Part shown: positions 8,916-41,313 of the stretch, piece after piece
Layout: each line of letters opens with the position of its first letter
Numbering within the stretch: position 1 is the first letter of the stretch
Notes under the pieces: generated by a model
What the model saw: the letters and a program-made list of their open reading frames with translations, nothing else
Told to the model about the DNA's origin: nothing
Databases searched by the model: none
From: Blasia pusilla
Lineage: Eukaryota
NCBI GenBank assembly: GCA_050084515.1
Contig: CM114271.1
Coordinates: 8,866,001-8,930,000 of the forward strand
Length of the DNA: 64,000 bases
Reading direction: 5' to 3'
Program-made: the position numbers and the translations under genes

Positions 8916-10927
8916 TTGATAGGAGGAGAGCGACGTCAAGTTCATAGGTTTCTGAGAGGGCATGTCAGTTGTTTTGTCTTCAGTATCAGAGACTTGGGTA
9001 CGATGAAGGGTCTCGGGATACGGATTGAGTTGGCTAGTGATACGCCGATCTTTTGTCGACCTGATAGGTCTTGTGATATGGAGCGAGCCTTGATTTAGAG
9101 CAGGAGTCATGACTTGTGGAGTTATCACATGGGGAGTATGCATCTGCCACAGTCATGCCGACGAAGAAGGATATGTATGGCAATTGGACCGATAGGCGGA
9201 TGTATGGAGATTACCGTCCTATCAATCGACACACGAGTATCCATGCTTACTCCTGAGGAGATCTTTGATGCGGTAGGGCATGCAAAGATCTTCAGTACTT
9301 AAGATCTCCGTGTTGGCTATCATCAGTTTCCTATCTGGTTGGAGGACAGGGAGAAGACAACATTCTGGGGGATAGACTGGTTCGGGAGAGATTTCTTGTA
9401 TCAGTGGCGATTCTTACCATTTGGGTTGAAGAATGCGCATGCAGAGTTTCAAAGAGTGATGGATAGGATTTTGGTTGGCTTGGATTTTGTACGATGTTAC
9501 ATAGATGATATTCTTATCTTCACTTCCACGGTTGAGGAGCATGAGCGACACCTGGAGGAGGTGTTTCGGCGATTGCACTCACATGGACTAAAGTTACATC
9601 CAGGCAAGTGCAGATTCTTTCAGGAGCAAATTGAGTACTTGGGACACACCATATACCCGAGGAGGAGCGGTAAGAGGAGAGGAAGAGAGGAAGATATTGG
9701 CAACCCCTAGGGCTCTTATTTTTTTAAGAGAGTTTCCGACAGGTTGAAGAGAGTTTCCGACTGGTTGGAGAGAGGAAAGTTTTGACGAGTTGAAAAGGAA
9801 AAAAAAAATCCAAAAAAAATTGGTGGTGACATTTTTTGATTTTTTTTACCTTTTCAACCTGTCAGAATCCGACGGGTTGCAAATTTTTTTGGTTTTTTTT
9901 TTATGGTTAAGGAAAAATTTTCATTTTTGGGGGTTTTCTTAACGTTTGCAACCTTTCGGAGTCCAACGGGTTGCTTTTGAGGCCAAAAAGAAACTCATCG
10001 GAGTCCGACGGGTCGCCATGATGCCTAGAAAGCAACCCGTTAGAGTCCGACGGGTTGCAAATGTTAAAAAAATCCCAAAAAATGAAAATTTTCCTTAACC
10101 CAAAAAAAAAACCAAAAAATTGCAACCCATCGAATTCCAACAGGTTGCACTAAGTTTCCTCTCTTCAAAAAAAATCTCCAAAAAAATTACTCACTTATTA
10201 TCCATAATCTTCATATTTTTTGAAGAGAGTTTCAATTTTTTGTCCCTGTTGTGCCTTTTTTTTTAAGAGAGACTCTCCTCTCTTCCTCTCTTCCTCTCCT
10301 CTCTTCCTCTCTCTTGCCAAAATACCAGCCCCCTATACCCGAGTGGTTTAGGAGTTCAGCGAACGAAGGTGGAGGCTATTGCGCAAATTCCACGCCCTAC
10401 AGATGTGAGTCGAGTCGTAGCGTTTCTTAGACTGGCAAACCTCTATTGACGGTATGTCAAGGGTTTTAGTTCGATCGCAAGGTCTTTGACCTTTTTGATG
10501 AGACTGGATCAGGTTTGGTTGTGGGGAGACAATCAGGAGCGAGCATTTCAAGAGGTGAAGGACAGGTTGACGTCCTCAACCATTTTACAAAGACCGGTTA
10601 GGGGTCGTCCATTCCAGTTACATACGGATTGGAGCATGTTGGGTCTAGGAGCAATGCTTACTCAGAGGGATGACGAGGATAGGGAGTTTGTTATGACTTA
10701 CGTGAGCTGATTGAACAACATTGTAGAGGCAAAGTACAGCTCCTACGAGGGAGAGTGCTTGGCTACAGTGTGGGCGGTGGCACATTTCAGGTGCTATTTA
10801 TTCGGCAACCCTTTCATACTTATCACTCATCATCAGCCGTTTAGGTGGTTGATGGAGTCCAACAAGCTTACGGGAAAGCTTTCTAGGTGGGCTCTATTAC
10901 TACACGAGTATAAGTTTAAGGTGGTGC
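8916..10927 (+). pseudogene. Gypsy reverse transcriptase-RNase H remnant, interrupted by a MITE
   Basis: LPFGLKNA, YIDDILIF, KLHPGKC, IEYLGHTIYP|SGLGV, FQLHTDWS, YSSYEGECLA, KLSRWALLLHEY. Confidence 0.9.
9661..10333. mobile_element. Non-autonomous Mutator-like MITE (673 bp) of the palindrome-bearing family
   Basis: Perfect 9-bp TSD TATACCCGA (9652-9660 and 10334-10342); removing it restores RT GHTIYPSGLGV. Ends match 29323 (GAGGxGCGGTAAGAGG) and 41313 (AATACCAGCCCCC). Holds five 27-bp palindromes. Confidence 0.9.
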
Positions 10928-13443
10928 TATTTGTTATGCACCTTCAGACACGCAGAGTGTAGCCTTTATGCAGCCCAGTACTTCCACTCATTTTCTTGAG
11001 AATATCAATTCCACAATCCGTTTTCAGACCTCTCAATTGTTCAACAATACTACAACATACCATGGCCTGAGGCTACCTGAGTCACCTATCAAAAGGAAAT
11101 GTACCTAGCGTATTGCACATGATGTGTAAGCTCCTGCCCTTTGTCCAGCCGCATTGCTGTGATTGCACCCGTTCACTTGAGCACTTGTTGCTAGACTATT
11201 ATCCTGACTTTAGTACCGGCTTTCATGCGCAGATGATCATCGGCAATTTGAAGGATGATTCTTTTGATCCACTTCTGCGCCCGATTACTTAAGGTTGTTT
11301 AAGTCTACCACTAAGTAGACAGTTTGGTTCTACTCAGATGCTTTCATATTCTTGGTTGTACCAGCTGATAATTTCTGCAAGTCTATGCTATAAGCATTAG
11401 TTTATACAATTTTATCATGACACATATACTCTTATATAACTACTGGGTTTCTTCTGGAATTTTAATTTTTAAACTTATTACATTTTGCGTTGTGTTCTCT
11501 ATGCATTGGTGACTTATGCTATACATGGTTGTCTTCTTGACTCCTATGTTATTGTCAAATTTTCTGGTCACCTAATCGCTGTTTAACAAGCATTGATTGG
11601 CAGCATTTGTAGCTCATTTATCACACTTGGGTTTACCTCATTCTCACCAATACGTTCTTATTATCAAAGTTAGTTCTGTGTTGTTTCTTTTCCACACTTT
11701 TAGTTGCACAACCATTTGTTAGCGGTGATGTTATGTTACGTTTCATTGCAGAGAACATCAATGTCTAACTTTGTGAGTGAGGACACATACCCTGCTCTTG
11801 TTGCAATTGAATGTGACAAAGGTAGCAGAAAACGGAGAAGGCGGCATTCACCCGGCACAGAGGTGAAGCTCCCAAGTGTCAGTGATCCAATATACTTCAA
11901 TGACAATGTGCAGATGGTTGGGTTTGAAGTAGCACTAAAGAATACCAAAATTGCTTAGGATCGACTTGATGACTGTGGACGTGATAACGACATACTACGA
12001 CTGGTCATGCAATGAGTAACTGAGGACCACGACACCGACATGGAAACATTTTCCGATCGCAAACATGACCTACAAAGTATTCTTGCTGACTTGCTTGTTC
12101 TTGAACAGCACTGTGTACACAAATATGCAAATGACCTGGAGCTACACGGCCAGATTGCTAAAGATTCGCTGTGGGAAAAAATGGAAAGGCACTTTGCAAC
12201 AATATAGTTGATAGCGACTCTTAAAAAGTAGGTTCAAAAAATGAGCAATGTGATATGTTTGCTAATCCCAAAGTAGAGACTCCTTGGCTCACTGTTGACA
12301 GCAGTTCATTCTTTTTATTTTTCAGTTTCCTGTCGTTTTGGGTCTGCCATCCCTTGTATCTCTAGAGAACATCAGGGAAAACTTGTTGTTGTATTTGATA
12401 CCAGTGATATGAATTTTTGATACTTGTATTCACACATATTTGTCTAACAGCGTAATGTTTTTTCTTCACTATAAAGACTGCCTTATTGCACACTAAAACA
12501 CATCTGATTATAATCTGCGTTGCAAACTAAGTTAAATTCATATCTTGACACAACAACACTGATGCCAGTTTAATACTTTCAGTGCATCCTGATACTTGAT
12601 AACTAAATTTATTAAAATCACACATGCACTCTTCACATTTGGCCTCTTCACGTTTGGCCTCTTTTGCATATATTTCGAGGGTCATCCTTGTGAGTTCACC
12701 TAGTTTTAGTCTACAGTTGTACACATGTGCTTTACCTATCTAGACTTCTGGTGTTCCTTACTATTGTGTTACCATCGTATGTAGACAGCGTATCGGCCAA
12801 CTCGATAGGCTCAACCATTATGTTTCATGTACTACTAATTCGATGAAGGCCTGACAACAAAAGAATCCATCCCGTTTTTGTTCAATTGATATTGAGATTC
12901 CCCCACTGTATCATCGATTTGGAGCACTTGTGTTGCATATGTCCTGCTTTGCTAAAATCGACCAGATCAGTACCTTGTTTCGAGCATAACATCTATGATT
13001 TTACAATAGTCATTGATACCTACCGTGAAAGTTGTAGTCGTGTTTTAAACCAGGCGTACAACCTATTGAGTGCCCACTCATATCCTATATCCTTATTCTC
13101 CCAAGTGCATCATTTTGTATGATCACAAATTTATTTCTGATTGACCACTTTAATAAAACTTCACAAACACACATATTCATGTACAAGTGACCAACAAATA
13201 CTCCTAAATAGTTACTTGATCTCCACATGCACAACAGAGTCTTGCTATAAGTTTACACAACAGGTGGACCCTCAAACTCATCCACCTTTACAACAAAGAA
13301 ACTATAGACCACAATCATTCGCGCAGTTTTATATTTTTACCTGACCACCTCGTTTACCACTATTTCTATTTACGAGACTACCGTTTCACTACACAAATCT
13401 TCACTACACTGCGAGGGGCGGCAAACTTGTTTTTCAAACATAA

Positions 13444-16953: not shown

Positions 16954-17565
16954 AGGAGTTGCAGTACTAACACCCGAAATCAAGGACGAATTTTATCAAC
17001 CGAAATCGCCGTGTTACGCAAGGAGAGGTGTTTGCGATAGCGAGAAGGCACTCTCCCATAGTAGATTGTCCACGATTGCTTCTAATTGGACTATGATGCG
17101 TGTTGAACTCATTCAAACTTTCCAGAAATGCTCTCAGATTGCATTTATCTCGCGCGCTCGTCCTCGAGGTCACGACTGAGGCGCAACGGCGGGGTAAAAG
17201 CAGTGGTGGAGCGACGGAACGAGAGGGCGACCGCGGGAAATGAGGGACACTATAGGAGAGAGGAGTCTCGTGTAGCAAGAAGGGCCGAGATGGGAGCAGA
17301 TTGGTTGGTGGTGGTGAGAGCTAGAAGTCTGAGCGAGTAGGGAGAAGAGCGGAGAAGATTGGGCCAGGGAGTAGTGTGGATCGACAAGGGGCGTTACCGT
17401 TGTCTGAGTGATCTGAGGAATTTTGGTGGTGTAGCGGTTTGCTACTTTTCGCAAGCCACAGCCATGCATTTCTGAGGAACTGCGGGCTGTGTGATCTATA
17501 TTTCTTCGGGAAAACTATCACATTCAAGCTTGTTCTGCCCCACAGAAAGAGAGAGAGAGAGAACT

Positions 17566-23837: not shown

Positions 23838-26600
23838 GGGGGCTGGTATCTTGGCAGGAGAGGAAGAAAGGAACGTCGCTCTTAAAAAAAAGGACAAAAT
23901 TCTTAACCTCTCTTCAAAACTATCTTCTATTTTTTAATATTCTCCTCTACTTGAAATGCAAGAAATGTTTACAAGAGAGTTATTAGGGGACCATGTTGGG
24001 GCTAAAACTAACTTTGTTTTTTCAGACGAGGATGTGAAGGTGAAAATGTGAAGACCACTTCAGACATGCTTAAATCACTCACTCTATAAGCCAGTGTTTC
24101 TCGGGCAGGATGGTATGTCATCCTTGCATAACCGTTAGGAAGGGATTTTATCACTACAAAAAAATTGTCACAAAAATCACAAGTGCTCAAAATACACTTA
24201 GAATATGGGGTCAATAGAAGGTATTTAATCCTCTTGTTTGAAAATACAAGTGAATAAAGTGCACTTAAGGAGTGGAGGGTATCAGACTTCTCAATAGATG
24301 AGAAGATTATAGACTCTTAATCCAAGACTCCCATCCTCATTCCCAACACTTTGTCAGAACTCAACAACCAGTGTTAATAGTCTTGGAGATAAAGGAATTG
24401 AAAAAGAGGAGAGGTGATTTGATGATAGGCGCTTACTCACACACTCCATTATTCCTGCATGTTGCAAGAAATCCTGAATGGATACTAAAGATGGACTTGG
24501 ACTTGGAAGAGAGGGTACATAATGTCGACTTGGAAAATACATAAGGAGTAAAGAACCTTGTTGGGTTTGTGGAGTCTCATGAGGGTAGATGAGGCATCGT
24601 AGTGGTCAGTTTATCACAGATCTCAGAAGACAGTCCTCCAACATTTTGAATTCAAACAAGTTCCAAGAAATGAGTAGTAAAGAGATAGTGTGGATGTGAA
24701 GTTGGTACCAAATGGAGGATTGCAATTTTACTAACAATAACTTAGAAGACTTGGAGGTCACGAATCACTTATAAGACTTGGCTAACTAATGACTACATGG
24801 AGTCTTTAGAAGGATGATGGGCGTTTGGCAACCGTGGTTAAACACAAATGTTAGAAGTGAAGGAAGTCAACAAGAATGCCTAAAGGAAGGAATGAGAGGA
24901 AACGAGAAGCATTCAACCAACCAATTTGTCGGAATCCGATAGGTTGCAAGATTTCACAAGTGAAGAATTTTTTGCATTAAATAAAAAATCAGAGATTGGA
25001 GAAAAGAAACAAAGAATTAAATGAATAGAAAGAGCATCATCCAGACATGCGACCTGTCATAATCCGACAGGTCGCAAGGCATTCCCAGTGCAGAAAAAAT
25101 TGGAAGACATGAAAAATCAAAGGCAAGAATACTAAATGAAGGAATGAGAAGAAAGAAGAGGAGCATTCAAACAGGTTGCAATATGTCATAAGTGAAGAAA
25201 TTCTTGCAACACATGAGAAATCATATATTAGAATAAAGAAAGAGAGAATGACATGAATAGAAGGAAATAATCCAGACATGCAAGCAGTCGAAATCCAATA
25301 GGTTGCCTGATAGGATGTAAGAAAAAATAAGTAAGAGAAAATAAGGAAAAGAAAGAAAGAATGAGGTCACCAGAGACACCGCTCGCAACTTTTTGGAATT
25401 CGACATGTTGCAAGACATCACCACTATAAAATTCTAGGAAAAAACTTGACATACATATGAAGAAATGATAGGAAGCACACAAGTTCCATTCAGACATGCA
25501 CCCCGCAGGAATCTGATCAGTTGCAAGACATAACAAGTAGAGAAAGAGTTGTGAGACATGATTCCTTAGGGGTAAGGAAAAGGAAAGAACGAGGTTACAA
25601 GAGACACTTCTCGCAATCTATCAAACTTTGATAGGTTGCAAGACTTGACTAGTAGAAAATTTCATGAAACTACTTGGCACACATATTAAGAAATAATAGG
25701 AAAGAGAAAGGTTCCATTCAGACATGAAACTTGTCAGAAACCAACAAGTTGCGAGACATTAGAATTGTCCACAAGAAGTTACCATGGACACTATGTGCAA
25801 CTTGTCGGAATCTGACAAGTTGGAGGCAATGTCAAAAACCATACATGGAAAAGCAAAAAATGAGTTTTAATCTCTCAAAATTTGATAGGTTGCAGGCACT
25901 TTCAAATTTTGAGAGATTGAGCAATTGGTGGTGACACCATCATCACTAGCTATAACTATAAAAATTGGGCGGCAAAGCGGGCGGTGATTTTGGAAGAGCT
26001 CTCTAATGACAAGTAAGTGCGTTGGTTTAAGAAGCATTTTGGAGTTGGACTCCAGTGGTTTCAAGCAGAGGAACACATATTTATTCTATATAGGTGTCAC
26101 TTTGTAGAGCATGCAAAATTACTTGCGAGGTCATGCGTTGGGACAAATCTCGGATGACATGGAATCAATATGATGCATGTGTATTGTTGTGGAGACGACT
26201 TGTAAACTCCTATGTGCTTGTCGTAATCCGCCTTGGCCTCTTGGCACAAGGCAAGTAGTTTCCTCCTTGACTCAAGGCAGAGAATATTTCGTCCGCTCTG
26301 CCAAATGGCTCTAACACTTGCCCTCGACAAGCCCACCAAATCAATAACCAAGTCTCCAGGTGGCGAGTAGAGCTCCATTAGGATATGCATTAACGCTAGG
26401 ATTTTTCCCTTCCTCCTAGTAGAGCCACATTCTGGTCGAGATAAATTCTCAGGGGCGATTTGTACAAACTTCTCGATGTGTATCCATCAGGGGAAGGATC
26501 AATACGATCCTCGATCTCAAAAACCTTGAATCTATGCTCCGGCCTCACAAAACAATACACATAGGAATACTCGATCTACACATAGAAAATGGGCACAAAG
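23838..26600 (-). mobile_element. Older degenerate relative of the ParB-MTase Mutator-like element (one arm only)
   Basis: Terminus GGGGGCTGGTATCTTGGCAGGAGAGG at 23838 is the inverse of 41313 and 10333. 24313-24372 matches ~41077-41137 inverted. Decayed 27-bp palindromes at ~24920-25925 and an MTase-like exon. Right limit uncertain. Confidence 0.7.
26190..26575 (-). pseudogene. Paralogous last exon of the N6/N4 methyltransferase-like gene
   Basis: IEYSYVYCFVRPEH...ALMHILMELYSPPGDLVIDLVGLSRASVRAIWQSGRNILCLE, closely matching 31212-30830 and preceded by an AG acceptor at the same position. Confidence 0.75.
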
Positions 26601-28249: not shown

Positions 28250-29322
28250 TGGGAGCTTGTTACAAGTGAGATTGTATGAGGATGAGTGCTTGGCTGTAGT
28301 GTGGATTATTGCATATTTCAAGAGTTGATTATTCCAAAATCCTTTTACCATCAGCACTGATCATCAACCACTTAAATGATTGATGGAAATGGATAACTTA
28401 CAAGGAAGCTTGTGAGGTGGTGAGTATGATTTCCAAGTGGTACATTGACCTAGGACCCTCAACCCAGATGCAGATGAGTTGAGTCGTAACCCATGTCCGA
28501 GTTAGCTAGATGCAACTTGAGCTCGTTGGCGTTGAGATAGTGATGAGGAGTTGGAGCCTGGATGGCACATGTCAACCTATTTGGGCTTGTTGGCTATGGA
28601 GAGCCAGAGTGTTGACGGGCCTTTGATGGTGAGGTCTAAAGGAGAGTCCTTAGATCGAAAGGTTGGTGAGGAGGTGACAAATAGCTAAGATATTCACGAG
28701 CATGGAGTAATCTTGAAGTACCTGTGTATTGGCAGCGTCATAGATCTTTGAGCCACATGGTTTTTGTGGAAGAGAACGTATGTATTGTGAGTTTGCGAGG
28801 ATGGTAGAGTATGTGTACTGCCTCATCCTTCACATAGAGCACGTTTGGTGTAGCACGCCCATGAGAAGTTGGTTCACTTTGGAGTGAAGCGGATGTCCAA
28901 CTTGCTCTAGATACAGTTTTGGTGGCAAGGCATGCAGACTGATGTGTAAGAGTTTGTTGCTAGGTGCATGGTGTGTAATGTGGGCATCTTTCAATGCTCC
29001 GACTCCACAGTTGTATCCATTTCCGATCATGGGTTTAGGTTATAGGTGGAGTTTGGATTTTCCATGACCTTTATCTTTGACGGAGTGCCACGATTGCTCT
29101 ATTTTGGTGATGGTCAAGAAGTTCTCGAAGTGGATAGAGTTGGTTGCATTGCCTCACAAAGCAAGTGAGGGAGTAGTATATGTCTTCCTAGATCGATTGT
29201 TGAGTCATTATGGTGCACCAGCTGAGGTGCTAATAGACCAGGGTACAGAGTTTCACGATGAGTTTCATGCCTTTTGTGATAAAGCGTTGATTCATCACCA
29301 CACAACGTCGCAAGATCATCTT
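28250..29322 (+). pseudogene. Gypsy RNase H-integrase remnant, probably from the DNMT-Gypsy family
   Basis: YEDECLAVVW, HHCC finger (HEKLVHFG...CMVC), WSLDF, FSKWIELVAL, VLIDQGTEF. Cut off by the TIR at 29323. Confidence 0.85.
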
Positions 29323-29565
29323 GAGGTGCGGTAAGAGGAGAGGAAGAGAGGAAGAGAGGAAGAGAGGAGAGAGGAGAGAGGAAAATACCTTCAACCAAAA
29401 TAGATACTTTTTTTTAAGAGAGTTTCCGTTGGGTTGAAGAGAAGAAACTTTTTGTGTGAATTTTTTTGCACTTTTTTGTTCATTTATTAAGTAGTCCCAC
29501 AATTTTTTTTTCCTCTTCCATATTTTGGCAACCCCTCTAAGTCCGACGAGTTGCAAATTGCACAA
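29323..29565 (+). repeat. Left TIR
   Basis: Near-exact reverse complement of ~40362-40596. Confidence 0.9.
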
Positions 29566-30694
29566 ACAAGAAAAGAAGCCTACAACTGGTTTGACGAATG
29601 TAGAGGAACGAGCCAAAAGTTAAGAAGCCCGCCACAATACGTCAGAAGTTGGTCTCACAAGGAAAGAGTCCTATCACTCAAGCAACCAACCTGTCAGAAT
29701 CCGACAGCTTGCCTGGAAATGGTTAAAAAGTTGCAGTGGGCAAGAAGCTTATAGTTGCAACCCGTCGGAATCATACGTGTTGCAAAATTGTAATTCTGAG
29801 AAGCTAAAAGAACACAATCCACAAGTCCAAAAAACATTTCCAGCAAACTTTTACAAACACCATTATCGGTTGAAAAAATCTCATCTTTTATTACCTCCGA
29901 AGGAACCTCGGAAATGTACTTTTGACCTAGTCTATGATTTCTTCAGCCTCGTCATCTACAAATTTACTCCTAACTCTCCTAGGTTCCTGTACAAAAGGAA
30001 TGTCCTGGGATACAAGTGGCTCCTCTGGCCGATTGTAGATGGGGATCAAAAATGTTGGCAAAATTGGAGAGCCTTGGCCCCCCCCTAGGTACACCATAAC
30101 GGTCCCATGTAACCTGATTTGAGTCCCACGGCCTTCCTCGACAGTATATCTTGTACGCTCTGCAATGTGACACCCATCCAGTATCAATATGTGCTCCGTC
30201 CTTGGTAATACCATGATGGAAATCCCACAGGTAGTAGGAATCCAACACGTCTGAGAGAAGAAAAGAAGCCTACGCCTTCTTTTACGAGTTGAGGGGAAGG
30301 TGCCAAAGTGAAGAAGCCTGCTAGAGTGCCTCTTAAGTTGGACCAATAGGGAAAGAGTCCGATCAGGAAACCTGTCAGAATCTGACAGGTTGCGTGGAAG
30401 TGGTTAAAAAGGTGCAGTGGTCAAAAAGTGAAAAGTTGCAAGCCGTGGAAATTCGACGGGTTGCAAAATAGAAGTCCGCGGAGTACATAGACGATCACAT
30501 TCGAAAAGACATAAAAGATATTCAACTAACTTTTAGAAACACCACCATCGTTTGAAAAAATCTTCTCCTTTATTACATCCGAAAGAAGCTCGGAACTGTA
30601 CATTTGATCTATTCTATGAAATCTTTTGCCTCATCATCAAATAATTCCCTACTCCAAACGCTGCAGTCAAGCTGAATCCTTGAGTTCTTTGAAC

Positions 30695-33600
30695 TCACTC
30701 GTCATCGTCCGAGAGCTCTTGCAAAATTACTTTCGGCCTTGCCCTCCCGATTTTCGGAATCGTTGGAAGTGACGATGGTGTCACTACCAATGGTGGGTCT
30801 GGAAACAGAGCTCTCGGCTTCGGTGGAGACTTGTATGCCCCAACGAGCCTGTCGTAATCTGCCTTTGCCTCCTTGCAAAGGTCAAACAGTTCCCGCCTTC
30901 CCTCGAGGCAGAGAATGTTCATGCCACTCTGCCAAGCGCCTTTGATACTTGCCCCTGAAAGGCCCACTAAGTCGAACACCAAGTCACCCGGCCTTGAGCA
31001 GAGCTTCGATGAGCGTTTGCATCAGGGCTGGCAACTTTTCCCTTCCTCCAAGAAGTGGGGTACCGTCTTGCATGTAAATTCCCGGGGGAGGGGGAATTGT
31101 ATAAACTATCTAAGCTGTACCCATCTAAGCATGGATCCACAGGATCCTGGATCTTGAACACCTGGAAGTTGTGCTCGGGCCGAGCGAAGCAGTAAACATA
31201 GGAGTGGTCCATCTGTAAAGAAGCACGTTGGAAACAATGTCAGCAACTTGGCATAATATGCAACACATCACCAAAGAACTTCGCTTGACCCTAGAGAACT
31301 TCTTTTAAATACTAACATTGGAGCAACCTGTCGGAGTCCGACGGGTTGTTTTTGTCCATGACCAACCCGTCGGAAGGCGACGGGTTGCTAGCTTAGAGCA
31401 GCCCATGCTTGGCTGAGAGCAACCCGTCGCTTTCCGACGGGTTGCAACTTTCCGGAAACACAAGGAAAAACCATAAGCAAGTGCAACCCATTGGGTTCCG
31501 AAGGGTTGCAGGTGGTAATGCGTTTTCCCTGTTTGCTCTCAGCCAAGCATAGGCTGCTCTAAGCCAGCAACTTGTCGCCTTCCGACGGGTTGCTCACAAA
31601 CAAAAACAACATCGGAGCTATACACTCTGGAGACAGGAATAGAGCCTTACCCGAATTTGACTCGTCGCGGATCGGAGTGGGTACTCGTTCTTGATGATCC
31701 ACGATTGCGCCGTCCTCCACTTCAGCGACCTCTTGACGCACTGGAGGTTGAAAAGCTCCTCCTCGCTCCCTCCAGTCAAAACTAAGAAGCAGCCCCTATA
31801 ACTCAGATAAGCGTGTGCAAAGGAAAACAGGAGCGCGATCTGGTCATAAGAAAGGGTAACATTCCAGTCTGGGACCTCGTCCGACGGATTCTCGTCCCAC
31901 AATCGCAATCAATAGATCCACTGCCAACGGATTCTCGTCAACTATCAATAGATCCACCGCCACCTCTTCGACCACTCCATTGACCGTCCAGGGAGCGTGT
32001 CCGTTTCGTTGAAGCTTCCGTCCCAACGTTGTCAATTTATCAATGGCGGGTGTCGACGCTTGAGAACTGAAACTTTTCAGCTCATCCAGTAAATTCGTGA
32101 ATTGAAGGAGGACGCTTGTCCGGGTCGTTCTTTCTCTATGTCTTCCCAAGGATGATGGACTGTATTCTCCCTGGGACAACCCTCGCGCCTCTCGCTTCCG
32201 CTTCTCCCGAGTCTGCGGTCGGCTTGTCGGGGTCTCTATGACCTCAGACTTTGGTGGGGTTTTTTTTCGCGGAGGATCTGGTCCGACCCTCTCTCCCTGC
32301 TCGCCTGGACGATTCCGGCTCTGGCCTTGAATCTTCAGCCTCTCTTTGGGAAGACTCGGCCTCGGAATTCTTCGCTCCCCTCGCCTTGCCTTTGAGACCC
32401 GCTGTGGATTTGTCTTTGGCTGTGTGGACCTTGGAAGCCAACTCCGCTGTCTCGAGGGCTTGCTCTTCCGCATCTCCTTCGAAAAAGTCTTCAGGCTGCA
32501 CAAAATTGGGGATGTCGTCCCGTCCTGCGGCCACTACATCATGAAGCACGCATAAATCTTTCTCGGTAATGTCCTCAGGGTCGTCGAAGTCCAGCCAAAT
32601 CGGGCAATTCTCCACCTCCCAATCGGACATGCACTGAGCCATCTCCGTGTCGTACATGGAGAATGTCTCTCCATCAAGCAGAGAAGCCCACAATTTGCAC
32701 GCTGCCGATATTTTTCCCTAGGTACCTGCATTCTTACAATGGACGAGGTACTTGAACACCATCCGTTGTGCAGCTCTAAGTTGAACTGAATCGGCCGCCT
32801 GCTCCTGAAGATCTCGCTTCTTCTTTGCGAGATCCCTTTTGTTCCCCTTGATTTCTTCGTCAAGGTTTGCCTGAGGGAGGACGCAATCCTTCAACATCGT
32901 CTTGAAACTTGGGTTTTTGATGGGCTTGTCCCGGATGTCATCGAGCCAAAGTTCAAAATCTACATCACTTTCCAGGTTTGCTTCATCCGGAATGGGCTCT
33001 ATTCTTATGAGCTCTGCTTGGAGACCGTCCAGCATGGACTTCCCGATAAGCCGCAACGCGTCCCAGAACGACCATTCGCGGAGCCAGTGGGAGATCACTG
33101 GATCACAGACACCCGGAGGATGGTGTGCCACCCTCTTCTGGGCCTCTGTGCCCTCGAGACTGATTTTCATCCGTCGGATTCTCCTTAATTCGCTTATTCC
33201 AGACAAAGCAAATCGATGCACGCGATCGAGAGACACTTTCTCCCCAATCCGACCTTGCGGATCTTCATCCCTTTTCTGCTGGCGCTTGATAATCGCCTTG
33301 AGCTCCTTGTAAAACTCCGGACCAAGTTCGGGGTTGAGAATGGCGATGCGGCGCATCTTGCTTGCCGTGTACCGTGAGCTACGACATCTGCGGCTTGGAT
33401 GAATTTTGCGCGCTCAGACACAAATACTTTCTCCCTCCGCTCCAGCTCCAATGCAGCGCTCTTCTTCGCGGCCTGTATCTTCGACCAGTAAAGGATTGTG
33501 ACGGCTGCATCTTGGGAAATAAACTTATTTGCCCAAGTCTTCTTTTTTATTTGTGCACCCTTTGCCAAAGATCATCGATTTACGGGCGTCGCCAAGAACC

Positions 33601-35707
33601 CTTGTACTGCTTCGGGTGCGCCCTAAGCACCTTCTTCACCCAATCGCAATCCTGGATCCAGTGGTGGGTGACATTCCCCTCCGATACAATCCTGCACATC
33701 CAAACTCAATATAAGAAAATTTGTAAGGTACATGGGTTCCTGCAACCCGTCGGACTCCGACAGGTCGTCATAGCTCAAGGTTGGATTCTAGCAACGAGCA
33801 AAATTATGCAACCCATCGGAGTCCAACGGATTGCATTCAGATTTGTGATTGCCTGGTTTCAACCCGTCGGACTCTGACGGGTTGTCAGATAGTCCGTATC
33901 AAAAGTGAACATAGCAACCCGTCGGAGTCCGAAAGGTTGCGCAATTGCAATGAAAGCTGCAATTTGACGCAAAAAATGTAGCTTCCAACTTCCGAATGCA
34001 ACCTGTCAGACTCCGACGAGTTGCTTTCAGCCAAAAACATCAAAAAACCTTCAAAAACAACTTCGAGTCGAGCAACCCGTCGGACTCCGACGAGTTGCTT
34101 TGGGCCAAAAACATACTAAACGTGTGGTAAGTCGAACAACTCGTCGGAGTCCGACGAGTTGCTTTCTTCAAAAAACATCCAAAAAATACGGCGAGTCGAG
34201 CAATTCGTTGGACTCCAACGAGTTGCTTTCTTCAAAATACATCCAAAGAATGCGGCCTGTCGAGGAACTTTTCGGACCTTGACGAGTTGCTTTTGACCAA
34301 AAACATACTAAACCTATGGTCAGTCGAACAACTCGTCGGACTCCGACGAGTTGCTTTCGGCCAAAGACATCCTAACCCATTCATCAATCGAGCAACTCGT
34401 CGGAGTCCGATGAGTTGCGTTTGGCCAAAAACATCCCAAAAATAGTGGCGACTCAAACAACTTGTCGGAGTCCGACGGTTTGCAGCAAGAAGAAACTTAC
34501 GTGTTCATGGCATGCATGGCCATCTCCACCGTCGCCATGTGATGAGGGTATGAATGAAGGACCACTGCCTTCACGCAAAAATGTGGCTCCAAGGAGTTGG
34601 GGCGCTCCTCTGCAAACTTTGTCCACGCCATGAACCTGTGATTTCCATCCCACATGAAGAAATGCAGATTCCTCATCCAGCTGAATTCCGTCCCCTCTAC
34701 TTACCTTCTGAATTCCTGATCTCTCATCCTCCAGAATGTGTCGAGCTTTTCCAAGTCCTCCTCCGTAACCAGCGCTTGGGTTCCATGCTCATCGTAAGGT
34801 TGAACATAGAACGGAGGGAAGCTGTTGACGTAGGATGCTGTCACCGCCGATTGTTTGAGCTCCGCAATATCCTCATCAGACTGAATTTCACGGACGTACT
34901 CCATTGTCCGCAATCAGCAGAGTGGAATTCTCGGGGCGTTGTGGCCCTCCATTAGTGCCATCTGCTTTACCACCTGTCACAACCGGGACAAGATCAGTAA
35001 GCTACACTGAATTGCCAATGAATTGCAAGATGGGCCTTCATATAATTCAAAGAACCCAGATCCTCTCTTACCCGCTCAAAGATTGGGTCGGTTTCTTGAC
35101 CGGCCAAGTGCTCTGAGACAGCAGCTGGCAAGTCCACTGGAAACTCGTCGATCTGATAGAGGTCGATTTCTTCCGCCAGGCTTGGAGACGAGGATGACCG
35201 CTCTCCTGCTTCTTCCACAATGTCCACCATCTCCACGCTGGCGGTCCTCATGACCTCATCGTCCGTGATTTGAACTTCAGCCATTTCCGCTATATTGATT
35301 GTGTCCCCGAACTTCATCGGGGACATTTCCCGCATCTCAACACTTTCGGTTGGACGGGAAGGGCTGTCGTCAATGGCTATTGCTTTTTCCCTCCTCGCTT
35401 TAGCCAATTCTGCTCTCCTCACCGACGCGTCCAGACGCTTCTTTTCTCGCTTTTTGTCGGCGACCCTTTTCTTCAAGGCCTGCGACATCTCAGCCTCTGC
35501 GTTCTGTTTATCGAGCGCCTCTTGCACACGTTTGCAAGAAGCTCCCGCTTCCCTTTCTCGCTCCTCGATTTCTTGCTGCCTTATCTCATTTGCCGAACGA
35601 GGCCCTAGAGATGGTGACGCAGGAGTCCTAATGGACTTGGGAGTGAAGCTCCCAGACTTGTTTTCTTGAGCTTTTTTCCTCGTCGTTTTTCCCAAAAATG
35701 CCTCCAC
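30695..35707 (-). pseudogene. Spliced MULE accessory gene: charged N-terminus, ParB/Srx-like domain, helical region, beta-class N6A/N4C methyltransferase-like domain
   Basis: Exons ~35707-35072, 34973-34501, 33691-31651 and 31212-30695 with GT-AG introns. ParB-like IPLC*LRTMEYVREI..DIAELKQS...PFYV...FFMWDGNHRFMAW. MTase-like VDLLIVD...PDWN...AHAYLSYRGCFLV...WIIKN...HSYVYCF...PALMQTLIEA..RPGDLVFDLVGLSGAS..AWQSGMNILCLE. Several stops and frameshifts; start uncertain. Confidence 0.7.
33998..34483. repeat. Intronic tandem array, 64-bp period, each unit containing the 27-bp palindrome
   Basis: Palindromes start at 33998, 34072, 34136, 34200, 34264, 34328, 34392 and 34457. Confidence 0.9.
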
Positions 35708-36038
35708 CTATATCCACGATGAATTGCTTGATCAGTCGCCTTGCTGATGTCGAGATGAGTCGCCTTGATGGGTAGCTCGAATCGTCTTGCGATCGTTCCG
35801 TCGAACCGTCTCGCTCTCGTTCGCTCGTATCGTCTCGCGATGACTCGCCGTATGAAGCGCCCCTTGGTATCTGATTAGGTGCTGCGCAGGAGAGCAATGG
35901 AGATCGCAAAATGAGAAACCAGAATTGAGTGATTTCTCCCCTATTTATACTTTTCTAGCCGTTGGGCTGACTATTGGGTTGCGTCATCCTTCCGACGGCG
36001 ACGTGCCGGCCGTTACGGAAGTCTGGACGTGAAAAATG

Positions 36039-36725
36039 GCAACCCGTCGGAGTCCGACAGGTTGCGCGCCTCCGCCGTCCTGGGATGATAACGCGAGGTG
36101 CGCGAGCAACCCGTCGGAGACCGACACGTTGAGCGCCTCCGCCGTCTTCGGACAAGAACGCGAGGTATCCGCGCAACCCTTCGAAGACCAATAGGTTGCG
36201 CGCCTCCGCCGTCTTCGAACAAGAACAGGAAGTACCGGCGCAACCCGTTGGAGACCGTTGGGTTGCACGCTTCCCTCGTCAAGGGTTAACAACGCCGGCT
36301 TCCCGCGCAACTCGTCGGAGGCCGACGAATTGCACGCTTCTTTTATGTAAGCGAAACAAGGCGAGGCCCTTGCGCAACCCGTCGGAGGGCGACGGGTTAC
36401 ACACCTCGCCGTCTTTGGGCAAGAAGGTGCGGCACCCGCGGAACTCGTCGGGAACAGACAGTTTGCACGCTTCCTTCATGTAAGTGTTACACCGTGAGAT
36501 AATTGGGCAACCCGTCTCATGCCGACGGGTTGCAAGCCTCCGCCATCTTCGGGCAAGAAGGAGCGGTATCCGAGCAACTCGTCGGAGAGCGACGGGTTGC
36601 CAGCTTCGATCATGTTTGCGTTTCAAGGTAAGGCAGAAGCGTGCAACCCGTCCAAAGCCGACGGGTTGCAGGCCTTGCTTAGCTTGGGTTAATAGTTGAG
36701 TTACCAGGACTCCGACGGGTTCCAA
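36039..36725. repeat. Intergenic tandem array, 67-bp period, each unit containing the 27-bp palindrome
   Basis: Palindromes start at 36039, 36106, 36173, 36240, 36307, 36374, ~36440, 36507, 36574 and 36643. Confidence 0.9.
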
Positions 36726-37139
36726 CAAAATGAAGTGTGCTTCGCAACCCACGTCTCTGCTTCCCACATCTTGTAACAGATTGCAACAGATTGAATAGGT
36801 TGCAACATAATTGAATCCATTGTGTCAGAAAATTTCACCTACTGAACTTCATCTTGTCAGTAAAATTCTGTCAGGAGTATCTGATTTCTTATTCACTATA
36901 AATTAAAAATTCTCATTCTGATTCTGATTCTCATTCTGATTCTCATTCTCACTCTCCTTCCGTACGAAATTTCCGGGAATGGATAATTATGTGAAGCTCA
37001 CTTGTGGCAGTCATCTGGTGGCCCTTCCTCAATCAAAAATCGTTCGACCGCAAGCTCTTGAGTCTTTGATAGCAGTGGATGAAAAATTTCTCTCTCTTCG
37101 ATTTCTTCTCCAAATTGGAACCATCTTTGTATCCAAGGA

Positions 37140-40100
37140 TGTTAGGATGGACGGTACGGAGGACATAATAGGTGAGACAGTCCAGCCAGTGATTGCAGAT
37201 CGTAAAGTATGGAATCTCCTACCTCTAGCAAATGGTCAATACAGAGTTTATGGCCTGCCCCCTGAATTCGTCTGTTTCCCAAGTAGACGGTCGAGAATTT
37301 CCTAGTGCTCCGAGCTCTACGTTTGCAACTCCTAGCTCAGTAGATCCGGCTTCGACTCCAACTTCACACGCTCATAACAATGTTGTTCTTCCGGAAGAGA
37401 TTCCGGATGTTATCAACCTCAGTGGATCTGTCGGACACCAACCGGGCCCTCTGTCCGCCTACTCGTTCCTCTTGCGAGTATCAGGCAATAGTTTGCTTTT
37501 GTCTCTGGCCTTGAAAATGTTCAAGCACATTCTTGTCGACAAGCTACCACCCACGTATGATGGTAATTGCATTTTTGAGTTGCCTCCACTTGCTGCTCCT
37601 GCTCAAAAGAAAGATGGAGGACGCCTCAAGGGTATGGACAGAAAGTCTGATTGTCATCGATGGTGCAGGCTTCAACGGACTAATGCTTCAATTCCAAATG
37701 GTCCTTGGATTGTCTCCCGCCGCCAATGTGTTGGAGCCTTGGAGTGTAGAAGTCCAGCATGCCTGTATCTAGAGCGCAACGTGCGAGTCAATACGTCGCA
37801 ATTCCCCCCCCAAGAATGCAGAAACTCCATACGAGGTCGATGTCACCATACCGCCAGGAGGCCATCGATGTCCTCATTGTGAGGCATCGCCCTTCAGCGT
37901 TGGAGCGTGTCCTTCATACATATTTTTCATTTCCACGACTTGGGCTCCACGTCGGAGTACACAAGGCTGGCAGTTCATGTTGGCTCCCACACCCATCCTG
38001 TGACCGATGCAATTCAGAGACACATCAAGGAGGATGTGGCGAAGAAAGTTGTCGAGGTCTACAGAAACTCTCCGGGTTCAAAGCCCAGAGTGATCAAGCT
38101 CACAACGGCATCACAAATTTGTGAAAAATTTCTTGGAATCCCTGGACAGGGCCAGATCACGACGGCCGAGGAGAAAAAACTCTAGGAAAATCTCGCCTTT
38201 CTCGCTGATCCTGAATGCTTCCGGAATTTGCTGCGTCAAATACGGGTTCTGGATGGAAAGATGGCCGAAATGGATGCCATCGCCAGAATCAAGGCCAACT
38301 CCAGATTTCCATTCATTCAGAGATGGCAGTTCATGGGCCAAGGAGGCGAGGGATCCAGGGCCTATGTCTTCAAAATTTCAACCACAGGTCCGTCGAGTGG
38401 CCTCGATCTTATAGATCGGATGAGGGAAGGGGAAGATCTTTACAGCAATTGGGTAAGCTTTGATATTTGCTATAGAGTGCTGATCGGATGGTTCACAATG
38501 GGTGCTCACGTTTATGACTATGTGGAGAAGGGACTCAAAACTATATTTGTCTGTGAAGTGAAGGCAGAAGACGTTGGCAATTTGAAGATGTGTTGGTTGC
38601 TCTTATTGGAGGTGGTGAAGGAAAACAAAAGGCCACCTCCGGAAATTTATGGGTTCATGGCGGAAAATGCACAACTTGGGTGGATTGCTATCCGGGAAGT
38701 GTTCTGGGGTGGAGAGGTTCAACCGGAGAGGGAAAGGTCGGATGCTTTCCATTGGCAAGAGTCTGTGACCCGGTACACCAAATCTTGCATCAAGGAGAAT
38801 AAGAGGACAGAGCATGTCACTCTACTCCAACGCTGCAAGGACAACAAAACTTTGAAGCAGGCCATGGAATGCCAGGAAGAACTTCATGGGTGGTGGAGGA
38901 AGCATGCAATTGAGGGGAAGTACAAAGACTTGTACTCTTGGTTGAGTTGGTGGACTGTACATATGAGACAATGGGGAAACTTCATGCGGCAGGTGAGTTC
39001 ACTATTTTGTCTTGTCAAGCTCACCTTGAGAATTTTTTGTAAAATTGCAGCTCAAGTTGAGAAGCATGGGAACTATAGGGATTTCAAACCAAAGAAACCA
39101 AGGAAGTTGTCGGATGCGAAGGGTTGCCCGAGTGTGCAACCCGCCGGAAACCGACGGGTTGCATCCAGAATTTTGGTGCAACCCGTAGACAAGTATGCAA
39201 GTCGCATGTATACAAGACCTGCAAATAGTTCGACCCGGATGGGTTTTGGATGACTTGCACTTGGATCTTCCAGAGTGACCACAAGTTCTTGCAACCCGTC
39301 TGAATCCGACGGGTTGCAGTAGGTGGGTTTAGGGTTGCAACACGTCGGTACCCGACGGGTCGCAGAGTCATTCTTGGGATTTCTCGGCCTTGCAACCCGT
39401 CTGGTTCCGACGCGTTGCAGTAGGTGGTTTTAGGTTGCAACACGTCGGGACCCAAAGGGTCGTAGGGTCGTTCATGGGATGCCTCGGCCTTGCAACCCGT
39501 CTAGTTCGGACAGGTAGCTTATTTCTTTGACTCCTGAGTTATTTTCGTTCCCTTCTAACATTACCGTCGTTGCACGGATTGAACATTCATGAAAATGCCC
39601 TCTGCCCCAACACAAGTGGAGCCGAAAGTGTTCATCCCTCCTGGAGGTTGTCACAAGCATGCCAACGAATTTCACTTGTGGAGGCATGCCAACAAGACCA
39701 GGCAAGAGCAATGCTCTGATCAAAGATCCCATATCTTCCTCAAAAAAGGCATAACAAAAGGAAGGGGGCCATCGATCTACGAGCTCTATGTCAGGGCGGA
39801 TGTGAGATCTAGAAATGGGGTGAAGAGAAACAGAATGTGTAGGCCAACGGTGGAGAGAGCAAAGCGAATTGCATCAGCTCAGGAGGCAAAAATAGAGATC
39901 ATCGCCACGAAAGATGTCATGAGTGGCAATGGAATAGGAAGGATGTATTGGGTCAGGAACAACACTGTAAATTCAAGTGTCACAGGGGTGTATGTGGTGC
40001 ACATCTGTTGCTTTCCCACATGTTCATGTGATGACTTTGTCCAAAGAGAGACAAGTGGCAAAAGGTATTTCCCTTGTAAGCACATGTACTATATGTTGCT

Positions 40101-40194
40101 GGTAGTTTTAAGAGAGTCGGAGGTAGGAGTAGGAATCCACCAACCAATTCTGTCCCTCAAAGAAGTGCGAAGTATTTTATACAAACCACTTTGA
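37140..40194 (+). pseudogene. MULE transposase: GCM/WRKY-like zinc finger, DDE core and SWIM finger; frameshifted
   Basis: CVGALEC...CPHC...GSHTHP; WVSFD (38462), GFMAE (38663, E in place of the second D), DAFHW. After an intron starting at ~38993 come PNTSGAESVH (E at 39624) and SWIM CSCDDF...CKH. Confidence 0.85.
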
Positions 40195-40361
40195 GGATGC
40201 AAAATGAGGTTTTAGATTGTACTTTCATTTTTCAAGAACCTTCACTTTTAGCTTGAACTCTATTCAGCCCAGGGCAAATGGTAGATTGTTTCCAGACCTT
40301 GGATGGAAAAAGTGATTTGTTCCACACTTATGATTCCACTGATTTTTCATTTTTGTATATT

Positions 40362-40596
40362 TTGCGCAATTTGCAACCAGTCGGACTCAGATGGGTTGCC
40401 AAAATATGGAAGAGAAAAAAATTTTGTGGGACTGCTTAATAACTGAGCAAAAAAGTGCAAAAAAATTCACACAAAAAGTTTCCTCTCTTCAACCCAACGG
40501 AAACTCTCTTCAAAAAAAATTATCTATTTCGGTTGAAGGTAGTTTCCTCTCTCCTCTCTCCTCTCTTCCTCTCTTCCTCTCCTCTTACCGCACCTC
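40362..40596 (-). repeat. Right TIR
   Basis: Near-exact reverse complement of 29323-~29565. Confidence 0.9.
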
Positions 40597-40597
40597 C

Positions 40598-41313
40598 TCT
40601 TTTCCTGTAAGGCCAACTTTTCAGGCATTCTGGCAAGCTTCTTCACTTTTGCCTCGTTCCCCCATTATCGTCACACCATTCTTCTCTAACACGTTATTTC
40701 ATAGACGTGTTGGATTCCTACTACCTGTCGGATTCCCAACATGTTGGATTCTCATGGATTGTAGGGTGGAATGGAATCACTTGTCAAGATCCTTCTTCAA
40801 ATGGATGTGAAGTTTCCAAAACTTTGCAAGATGGCATGCAAGCTGGGAAGAATGCTATGATCGTTTGCTCGTGCTCCCCTACTTTCTTCAAAGCATACTT
40901 TTGGAATATCTGATTTTCTGAGAGGTTGCAAGCTTAGTAGTGTAATTCCTTTGCAAAAATGAAATCTTAACTCTGTCATTTTTCACAATTTATTACCATA
41001 ATTTTCAATTCATTCTTTGCAACTCCCAGCCTCGTTTCCTTCATTGTAGTCCCGTCGGAATCACAAGTCTGTCATGACTGGTTGTTAGATTTTCACAAAG
41101 TGTTGGGGATGAGGGTGGGAGTCTTGGATAAAGAGCCCACTATGGTGCACTTCTTACTCTCTTTGAAAACTTTCTTTCATTTGAAGTAGGGAAGAAACCT
41201 CAAAAATTGAAGAAAGTTTTGAAGAGAGTTTAAGGATTTGGCCCTTTTTTTGGAGGGAGACTCTCCTCTCTTCCTCTCCTCTCTTACTCTCTTCTGTCAA
41301 AATACCAGCCCCC
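40598..41313. mobile_element. Terminal remnant of another member of the same MULE family, inverted
   Basis: 40598-40735 is an inverted homolog of 30221-30357. It ends ...AAAATACCAGCCCCC like the MITE right end and the inverse of 23838. Confidence 0.75.

Follow-up and report, generated by a model that had tools for sequence, protein, structure and literature searches.

A window of 64,000 nucleotides (nt) from Blasia pusilla (assembly GCA_050084515.1, CM114271.1, 8,866,001–8,930,000)—the whole stretch of DNA analysed, within which all coordinates below are given—contains an 11.3-kb element, 29323–40596, with inverted repeats of ~245 nt at both ends. Two divergent genes, 1.5 kb apart, lie within it: a transposase gene on the plus strand and, on the minus strand, an accessory gene whose product appears to join a ParB-like domain to one that resembles a DNA methyltransferase (MTase). 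The non-coding parts of the element are strewn with copies of a palindrome, CAACCCGTC-N7-GACGGGTTG. We propose that the element was once an autonomous DNA transposon of Mutator-like type and has since decayed, and that its accessory protein was a self-recognition protein that bound the element's own palindromes in the manner of KorB and ParB. The nearest working model would be KorB on the operators of plasmid RK2, or VANC on the transposon VANDAL21. Taken as a whole, this explanation has, in our judgment, about an even chance of being right.

The accessory protein, some 1,200 amino acids (aa) long, would comprise four parts: a ParB N-domain fold with the motif WDGNHR, a helical domain placed like the DNA-binding domain of ParB, a disordered basic linker, and a permuted amino-MTase fold. 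Acting as a dimer—both the dimerization and the identity of the binder are suppositions of ours—it would recognize the palindromes that fill the DNA near the terminal inverted repeats (TIRs), the promoter region that the two genes share, and the introns of both, two in the accessory gene and one in the transposase gene. Binding would allow the element to recognize its own copies, and so to control its two genes, to shield itself from host silencing, or both. The MTase-like domain would have bound S-adenosylmethionine (SAM), but without the canonical catalytic tetrapeptide. Use of a nucleoside triphosphate (NTP) by this protein, and its biological role, are things we infer.

The element and its palindromes

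The left TIR (29323–29566) and the right (40361–40596) are 90.2% identical over 245 nt by blastn, with 227 matches in the 256 columns of a global alignment, and their outermost 38 nt are 100% complementary. The left TIR starts with the terminus GAGGTGCGGTAAGAGG, runs on into a series of GA-rich 8-mers, and includes one palindrome, at 29529–29553; the right also includes one, at 40374–40398. The left subterminal region, 29568–30662, is built of two direct units of ~410 nt (29568–29977 and 30258–30662; 74.7% identical) and has palindromes at 29687, 29758 and 30368. Between the divergent genes, the intergenic region 35708–37228 holds a 67-bp tandem array and seven palindrome matches, from 36040 to 36668.

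Four traits are Mutator-like: the length of the TIRs (~245 nt, 90%), the 10-bp target-site duplication (TSD) of a small derivative, a SWIM-like motif in the transposase, and the neighbours of the transposase in a protein atlas. The derivative, 672 bp long (9662–10333) and non-autonomous, has related termini and five palindromes of the same family. It is flanked by the exact 10-bp TSD TATACCCGAG at 9652–9661 and 10334–10343, a length within the 9–11 bp expected for Mutator-like elements, and sits in a reverse-transcriptase open reading frame (ORF), 9303–9707 (RVT_1, E 1.2e-25). For the main element no TSD was found within offsets of ±4 nt, with the right end placed at 40596 or at 41313. The left flank, 29068–29331, is an ORF for an integrase core (rve, E 3.4e-10), and the right flank is not its continuation. 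On the right, 40597–40743 is subterminal-like, ~69% identical to the reverse complement of 30212–30357, and 41261–41313 looks like a terminus, similar to the one on the right of the small derivative. These right-flank sequences, together with the absent TSD, suggest a rearrangement or an adjoining relative. The element has an observed-to-expected CpG ratio of 0.85, compared with 0.59 for the remainder of the window; the CpG-rich palindromes contribute to the difference.

The transposase gene is a pseudogene. Its long exon, 37232–38992 on the plus strand, is interrupted by two in-frame stops (TGA 37880–37882 and TAG 38183–38185) and ends at the donor CAG|GTGAGT, at 38993. The intron that follows, 38993–39600, has an approximate 3' boundary and contains palindromes at 39137, 39292 and 39393 that match our search pattern, plus degenerate copies. 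The last exon, 39601–40194, carries the SWIM-like motif CxCxnCxH at 40021–40083; the match to the SWIM finger PF04434 has an E of 0.053, at 13.5 bits against a cut-off of 19.6. A search with the transposase returned one homologue, P0138, which is 39% identical and unnamed, and none in Riccia. The nearest clusters of the transposase in the protein atlas are MULE (Mutator-like element) and ZSWIM1-3 (scores 0.90–0.93), which serve as a lead only.

The palindrome consists of two inverted half-sites of 9 bp, always 7 nt apart; the half-sites are conserved and the 7-nt centre varies. The pattern CAACYYGTCGGANTCCGACRRGTTG, with up to three mismatches allowed, matches 37 times in the window, compared with 0.00 expected from 100 shuffles. 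Thirty of these matches are in the element, five in the 672-bp derivative, and two beside a relic MTase fragment described below. All 30 in the element are clear of its exons: the TIRs and left subterminal region have five of them, with four in the intron of the MTase-like domain, 11 in the intron next to the ParB-like exon, seven in the intergenic region, and three in the transposase intron. Three of these regions also contain tandem repeats—64 bp × 6.4 in the intron next to the ParB-like exon (34066–34477), 67 bp × 8.4 in the intergenic region (36039–36600), and 100 bp × 2.2 in the transposase intron (39288–39511). The original prediction had described a TIR-bounded element at these positions, with two genes head-to-head and palindromic site arrays of its own, and all of this holds up: the TIRs are there, the minus strand carries the accessory gene (from 35707 at most, down to 30697) and the plus strand the transposase gene (37232 to 40194), and the arrays are non-coding throughout the element.

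The palindromes need not have a protein partner. The arrays could be nucleic-acid hairpins, such as intronic sources of small RNA, or cruciforms, or they could be an expanding satellite. Pairing of the arms holds in 85% of cells, there has been tandem amplification of the arrays, and 12 cells have changed on both sides, a figure that 18 of 500 shuffles reach (shuffled sets give 7.3 ± 2.3). But the covariation of the arms scores 0.127 against 0.109 in shuffles, of which 37 of 500 reach the observed value, and this is among copies related by duplication; mutation bias could account for the changes from C to T and from G to A; and the site has been kept both in the diverged relic and in the non-autonomous derivative. 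We think hairpins or a satellite very unlikely. Because covariation is hardly above that of shuffles, it is the sequence that has been kept rather than mere pairing, as one would expect if a protein bound the site as a symmetric dimer.

Which protein read it is a harder question, and here lies the main rival to the self-recognition reading. The palindromes may be sites, both subterminal and internal, to which the transposase itself binds, as in Ac and MuDR, or they may mark cognate copies for activation by the transposase, the accessory protein acting in some other way, for example in general chromatin or DNA modification, or against silencing. There is one palindrome in each TIR and there are several in subterminal DNA, five are kept in the derivative, and the AtMu1 transposase alone is reported to activate cognate copies sequence-specifically (10.64898/2026.08.24.746577). 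The sites could equally well be attributed to the transposase or to the accessory protein, and their retention in a non-autonomous derivative, which fits both readings, is what transposase-binding sites would show. On the other side, 23 of the 30 copies lie deep in the element, in introns and the promoter region, away from the ends. The geometry of the site, 9-bp arms around a 7-nt spacer, is suited to a symmetric helix-turn-helix dimer of the ParB or KorB kind, and less well to the zinc-finger DNA-binding domains that MULE transposases are generally understood to have. Binding by the transposase, joined to some other activity of the accessory protein, is in our opinion somewhat unlikely, yet it is to be taken seriously.

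The accessory gene and its protein

On the minus strand, the accessory gene begins with a presumed N-terminal stretch, 34994–35707, that is open for 237 codons, charged and low in complexity; its first ATG is at 35488, and its start and its junction with the ParB-like exon are provisional. The ParB-like exon follows at 34497–34946 (IPLC..VREIQ..PFYV..WDGNHRFMAW..AMHAMN), with WDGNHR encoded at 34652–34635, DGNHR at 34649–34635, and in-frame stops at 34916–34914 (TGA) and 34703–34701 (TAA). An intron with the boundaries GTAAGT...CAG, 33693–34496, comes next and houses 11 palindromes, those of the 64-bp array among them. The large exon, 31649–33692, encodes the helical domain, a conserved middle, a linker that is basic and low in complexity, and then the MTase-like domain as far as its N-terminal half, with VDLLIVD at 31957–31937 and ENPS at 31893–31882. 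It has one in-frame TAG (32717–32715) and four frame changes; one frame change of the gene comes after a local tandem duplication of ~40 bp next to VDLLIVD. A second intron, GTAAGG...ACAG at 31214–31648, falls inside the MTase-like domain and contains palindromes at 31324, 31363, 31420 and 31568, and a 78-nt inverted repeat. The last exon, 30697–31213, with two frame changes, encodes the C-terminal half of that domain: HSYVYCF, within ORF 30967–31239, then a helix before motif I, GDLVFDLVGLSGAS at 30988–30947, NILCLE, and an acidic tail, the run P.LM..LIE/GDLVFDLVGLSGAS...NILCLE occupying ~31049–30881.

That the gene was spliced is probable from its GTAAGT...CAG and GTAAGG...ACAG boundaries and from its collinearity with homologues in Riccia, against which its exons show three in-frame stops and at least six frame changes. 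With this number of lesions, the copy is a pseudogene. The position of DGNHR, the stops at 34914 and 34701, and the order of the MTase-like motifs agree exactly with the original prediction, which had also called the gene spliced; this last finds backing in the splice signals and the Riccia alignment, both read from sequence.

A search of 1.84e9 representative proteins with the ParB-like exon, its internal stop written as X, gave 94 matches at E ≤ 1e-3, 24 of them at E ≤ 1e-10; the best, at 3.6e-18, are 34–37% identical. A word-index search with the 231-aa ORF from the middle of the gene found nothing. Among the 29 of the 94 whose records were examined, 14 are hypothetical proteins of the liverwort Riccia sorocarpa, two are from the fern Adiantum nelumboides, and 13 are nameless. 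Riccia proteins of 1,191 aa (KAL3686416.1, P0015) and 1,207 aa (KAL3677308.1, P0098) are collinear with the minus strand of the window from 34946 to 30794. They have the same order of parts along their whole length—WDGNHR domain, helical middle, linker, MTase-like domain—and differ in being 25–36% identical, and in that their reading frames are open whereas the copy in the window is broken. Riccia has dozens of paralogous fragments: 26 in one set, and the 14 named among the 29 matches. Several relatives carry the UniRef label 'Trimethylguanosine synthase', which no profile supports.

We examined the ParB fold on a relative of 570 aa, P0014, as an AlphaFold model with a 100-row alignment, rather than on the copy in the window. 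The model has a mean predicted local distance difference test (pLDDT) of 71, and most ten-residue blocks between residues 100 and 260 exceed 90. A scan of 48,161 representative chains with VIA, an aligner independent of Foldseek, placed four ParB-fold proteins at the top: KorB (Z 7.8), PadC (6.9), the ParB N-domain of pNOB8 (6.2), and Arabidopsis sulfiredoxin (5.9), the last with 89 of 89 residues aligned. When the Foldseek list was re-ranked by VIA, ParB-family chains filled the first 14 rows (Z 8.9–7.0), and unrelated chains scored no more than 5.4. Caulobacter ParB aligned over 180 of 180 residues (Z 8.9), and Myxococcus ParB with a root-mean-square deviation (rmsd) of 2.3 Å over 94 residues (Z 8.8). 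Whole ParB and Noc chains, DNA-binding domain included, align to residues 112–465 over 180–198 residues at an rmsd of 5.4–6.0 Å, and the helical domain after the ParB fold may be a ParB-like DNA-binding domain.

In sequence, D213, G214, N215 and H216 are near-invariant, in alignments of 100 and of 69 sequences, and the arginine that follows is present in at least 90% of a subgroup of 17. We count this conserved arginine of DGNHR, presumably, as one of the phosphate-binding Box II GxxR type. Of the weak profile matches among the 100 members, those that recur most are to TIGR03187 DGQHR (five members, best E 0.001), DUF1015 (six) and DndB (four), all three of which we take to be families of the ParB superfamily. 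A ParB N-domain fold in this family is supported, then, on the model, because the structure ranking is clean and WDGNHR is near-invariant.

The C-terminal domain has a permuted order, with the catalytic strand-4 region ahead of the SAM-binding motif I; alignment A1 and the frames of the window show this, and the order of strands and helices in the model agrees. PF01555, the N6_N4 MTase family, falls just short of its cut-off of 26.7 bits on three relatives (23.7–26.2 bits, E 9.4e-6 to 5.2e-5), and a precomputed match to it exists in four of 26 Riccia relatives. Searched against PDB sequences, the family profile has M1.HpyAVI/DpnA, M.RsrI and CcrM for its top five hits (E 0.002–0.013). Foldseek with the model of a relative, P0099, finds CcrM at 3.2e-10 and 93 matches in all at E ≤ 1e-3. 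VIA ranks M.BceJIV, M1.HpyAVI, CcrM, MboIIA and RsrI first, at Z 12–12.8 over 154–194 residues, with Type III Mod subunits (~Z 10) and MT-A70 enzymes (~Z 8–9) lower down. With DNA-methylase PHROGs of phages, relatives match at E as low as 4e-9, while two pieces from the window itself match at 7e-4 and 0.029. A beta-class amino-MTase fold is thus supported on the model, as the original prediction had proposed from its motifs.

Motif I and the acidic residue that ends strand 2 read GDIVIDFAGGWG...IVAE in Riccia and, degenerately, GDLVFDLVGLSG...LCLE in the window, where DLVGLSG replaces DFAGGWG in the SAM-binding loop. The domain probably still bound SAM. Its selective history can be read from a second, diverged copy in the window, the relic of a diverged relative (24920–26575, minus strand), which has palindromes at 24922 and 25798 and the C-terminal, MTase-like half of the gene at 26097–26575, with 55–61% protein identity to the main copy. 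No TIR and no ParB part were found beside it. A comparison of rates gives a ratio of nonsynonymous to synonymous substitution (dN/dS) of 0.10 over 104 codons between the two MTase halves, with dS saturated at 2.2. Purifying selection therefore acted on the MTase half as the lineages separated.

This constraint bears on two other explanations. In one, the element merely carries the ParB–MTase-like gene along, having captured it from the host or from a foreign source, and has no use for it; Mutator-like elements are, after all, known for capturing fragments of host genes. But this captured gene would be present in two diverged copies within 64 kb, under a dN/dS of 0.10, with dozens of paralogous fragments in Riccia and an architecture collinear between that liverwort and the window, and we find the idea hardly credible. 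In the other, which is the marking model of the original prediction, the protein is an active N6-adenine or N4-cytosine MTase, tethered to the palindromes by its ParB part, that writes a mark other than 5-methylcytosine. The fold is that of the beta-class DNA amino-MTases, Riccia retains DFAGGWG and the strand-2 acidic residue, dN/dS is 0.10, and prokaryote-like N4-cytosine MTases are reported to be in use in liverworts (10.1101/2021.02.12.428880).

A fern relative from Adiantum nelumboides, P0080, offers the marking model some further encouragement. Past its ParB-like domain, residues 478–582 give a weak alignment (hhalign probability 8%, E 0.0042) with the beginning of the MTase-like domain and read DVPF where Riccia has D[LM]P[ST]. 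This hints that the ParB–MTase fusion reaches ferns, and that an earlier form of the catalytic motif was closer to the canonical one.

The catalytic tetrapeptide of amino-MTases, after strand 4, is (D/N/S)PP(Y/F/W), in which the aromatic residue is essential. At the equivalent of this position, motif IV, Riccia has DLPT, DLPS, DMPS, DMPT, DLSS or DMSS and the window D-ENPS, so that the aromatic residue is missing from the window and from all 11 Riccia rows that cover the motif. As a CcrM-type target, GANTC, the palindrome centre is unsupported too, since it fits in 24 of the 37 sites and in one of the seven of the promoter array. An active marking enzyme is, all told, decidedly unlikely.

A number of results weigh against the self-recognition reading itself, besides the missing TSD, the claims of the transposase upon the palindromes, and the departures at motif IV. 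The accessory gene in the window is dead, its stops and frameshifts weakening any functional inference drawn from it, and a Pfam scan of 13 ORF pieces of the window found no ParB, MTase or MULE match. The Riccia and fern relatives are known here as protein sequences; a metagenome scan added four loci of 1.2–1.8 kb, in which neither palindrome arrays nor informative surroundings were seen. Concerning the ParB fold, Z values of 7–9 are 'middling' by VIA's own notes. Foldseek returned mostly Noc, ParB, KorB and sulfiredoxin, none at E ≤ 1e-3 and the best at 0.06. ParB_N (PF02195) matched none of the 100 family members at E ≤ 1; the ParB-like profile A3 drew four rows from PDB sequences, none of them ParB; and phmmer with the ParB piece as a single sequence, P0001, drew chance rows only from PDB sequences (E ≥ 1). 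Concerning the MTase-like domain, the P0099 model has a mean pLDDT of 49.3, and neither PF01555 nor other MTase Pfam models match the pieces from the window. And no Pfam family for MULE (PF10551) or Transposase_mut is matched at E ≤ 1 by the read-through transposase, P0137, or by its homologue P0138.

The original prediction therefore stands in part. Its ParB/Srx-like segment, for which Pfam, AlphaFold and Foldseek had been suggested as checks, gains from the VIA ranking on P0014, nothing from PF02195 and little from Foldseek; its amino-MTase keeps the fold and the motif order, with PF01555 just below threshold in three relatives and a non-canonical tetrapeptide; and its MULE transposase has the TIRs, the SWIM-like motif and the atlas neighbours in its favour, but no Pfam MULE domain, and no TSD for the main element. 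The function it suggested, self-marking by N6-methyladenine or N4-methylcytosine or else a ParB-like loading on the palindromes, may hold, but is weakened by the departures at motif IV, by the decay of this copy, and by the transposase as an equally eligible binder.

A bolder version of the self-recognition reading can also be imagined. A ParB–methyltransferase module of plasmid or phage type would have been co-opted by a land-plant Mutator-like lineage for sequence-specific self-recognition. An NTP-dependent dimer would clamp parS-like palindromes in introns, promoter and ends, while its SAM-binding domain would write or block a DNA mark, giving the family private protection from host silencing. 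With clamp, mark and protection all included, we regard this as unlikely.

Should it be true, a lead from the protein atlas would take on meaning. Residues 160–345 of P0098, the relative of 34497–34946, have as neighbours Ascomycota clusters in which 31–47% of members carry DUF3723 (scores 0.95–0.96), and a cnidarian cluster (0.96); like all our atlas results these are a lead only, and DUF3723 (PF12520) matches none of the 100 family members in Pfam. DUF3723 is reported to be a conserved accessory gene of the fungal Starship elements (PMC9156397). If co-option is the right explanation, a ParB-like domain for self-recognition might be common to unrelated mobile elements of eukaryotes.

Neighbouring open reading frames

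Two other features of the window deserve mention. ORF 7998–8402 matches the C-5 cytosine DNA methylase family PF00145 at E 3.9e-6, its 27 bits exceeding the cut-off of 22. It lies 0.9 kb upstream of, and on the same strand as, the ORFs for reverse transcriptase (9303–9707) and RNase H (10450–10959), and together they may represent a retrotransposon with a cytosine methyltransferase on board. Carriage of methyltransferases by retrotransposons has been reported (10.64898/2026.05.21.726589). Between transposon fragments, an open frame of 668 codons at 17476–19482 matches the Plus-3 domain (PF03126, E 2.7e-27) and is probably a host gene or exon.

Known systems

The closest precedent is found in red algae. 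Plavaka, Mutator and Zisupton elements there carry PAG2, in which PF01555 is joined to SET, and PAG3, in which a ParB-like part—identified by HHpred at E 0.29—is joined to a 2-oxoglutarate (2OG) oxygenase; tandem arrays of inverted repeats adjoin PAG3, and the authors propose that the ParB-like protein binds its own element (10.1101/2025.02.11.637652, a preprint on Bostrychia). As described there, these elements share with ours the DNA transposon, the PF01555-type methylase, the ParB-like protein and the inverted-repeat arrays. The likeness is one of description, and in the algae the two folds are in separate proteins with SET and oxygenase, whereas in the window they are fused, with neither, in a land-plant lineage. 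The original prediction knew of no such combination in a MULE. That remains so for the fused form and for land plants—our full-text searches of the literature yielded no account of a transposon whose accessory protein fuses ParB and MTase, nor any such report from land plants, though supplements may hold lists of elements—but the red-algal ParB-like and PF01555 genes come before it.

Fusions proper are known from prokaryotes, where a ParB-CTPase fold joined to an N6_N4 methyltransferase (PF01555) is reported to be enriched in prophages (PMC12704722). The phage and prophage fusions have the same two folds in the same N-to-C order, also in mobile elements, and phage PHROGs are among our matches. 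The gene in the window differs from them in being eukaryotic and spliced, in having ~450 aa, helical domain and linker together, between the folds, and in its non-canonical tetrapeptide. There are also clades of eukaryotic MTases that derive from phage ParB–terminase loci, and chlorophytes and chytrids have Dam fused to ParB-helix-turn-helix (Iyer et al., PMC4738411).

For mode of action we look to KorB and VANC. KorB, a regulator of the ParB family, acts at palindromic operators that are dispersed across the mobile element encoding it. In structure, KorB of RK2 (PDB 8qa8, 8qa9) is our best match in the wide scan (Z 7.8 over 187 residues; Z 8.2 on re-ranking), but with an rmsd of 6.6 Å over the two-domain alignment and no match at the level of sequence. 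VANC is not known to have a ParB or MTase fold. Few eukaryotic transposons are known whose proteins recognize their own DNA and act on it; the worked examples are VANC of VANDAL and TnpA of Spm. The resemblance to VANC of Arabidopsis VANDAL21, also an accessory protein of the Mutator superfamily with short tandem motifs in its element's own non-coding DNA (PMC5735166, PMC10398659), is a functional analogy only.

Against these systems, ParB and DNA-methylase folds fused in one protein, beside dense sites of dimer type, make a candidate for element-specific self-recognition in early-diverging land plants, which are already unusual in their DNA modification (N4-methylcytosine in Marchantia sperm). 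The copy in the window is a fossil only, and it is the intact relatives in Riccia that provide material for experiment. The link to the red-algal PAG genes, and perhaps to the DUF3723 of Starships, suggests that ParB-like modules are a recurrent part of the toolkit of eukaryotic mobile DNA.

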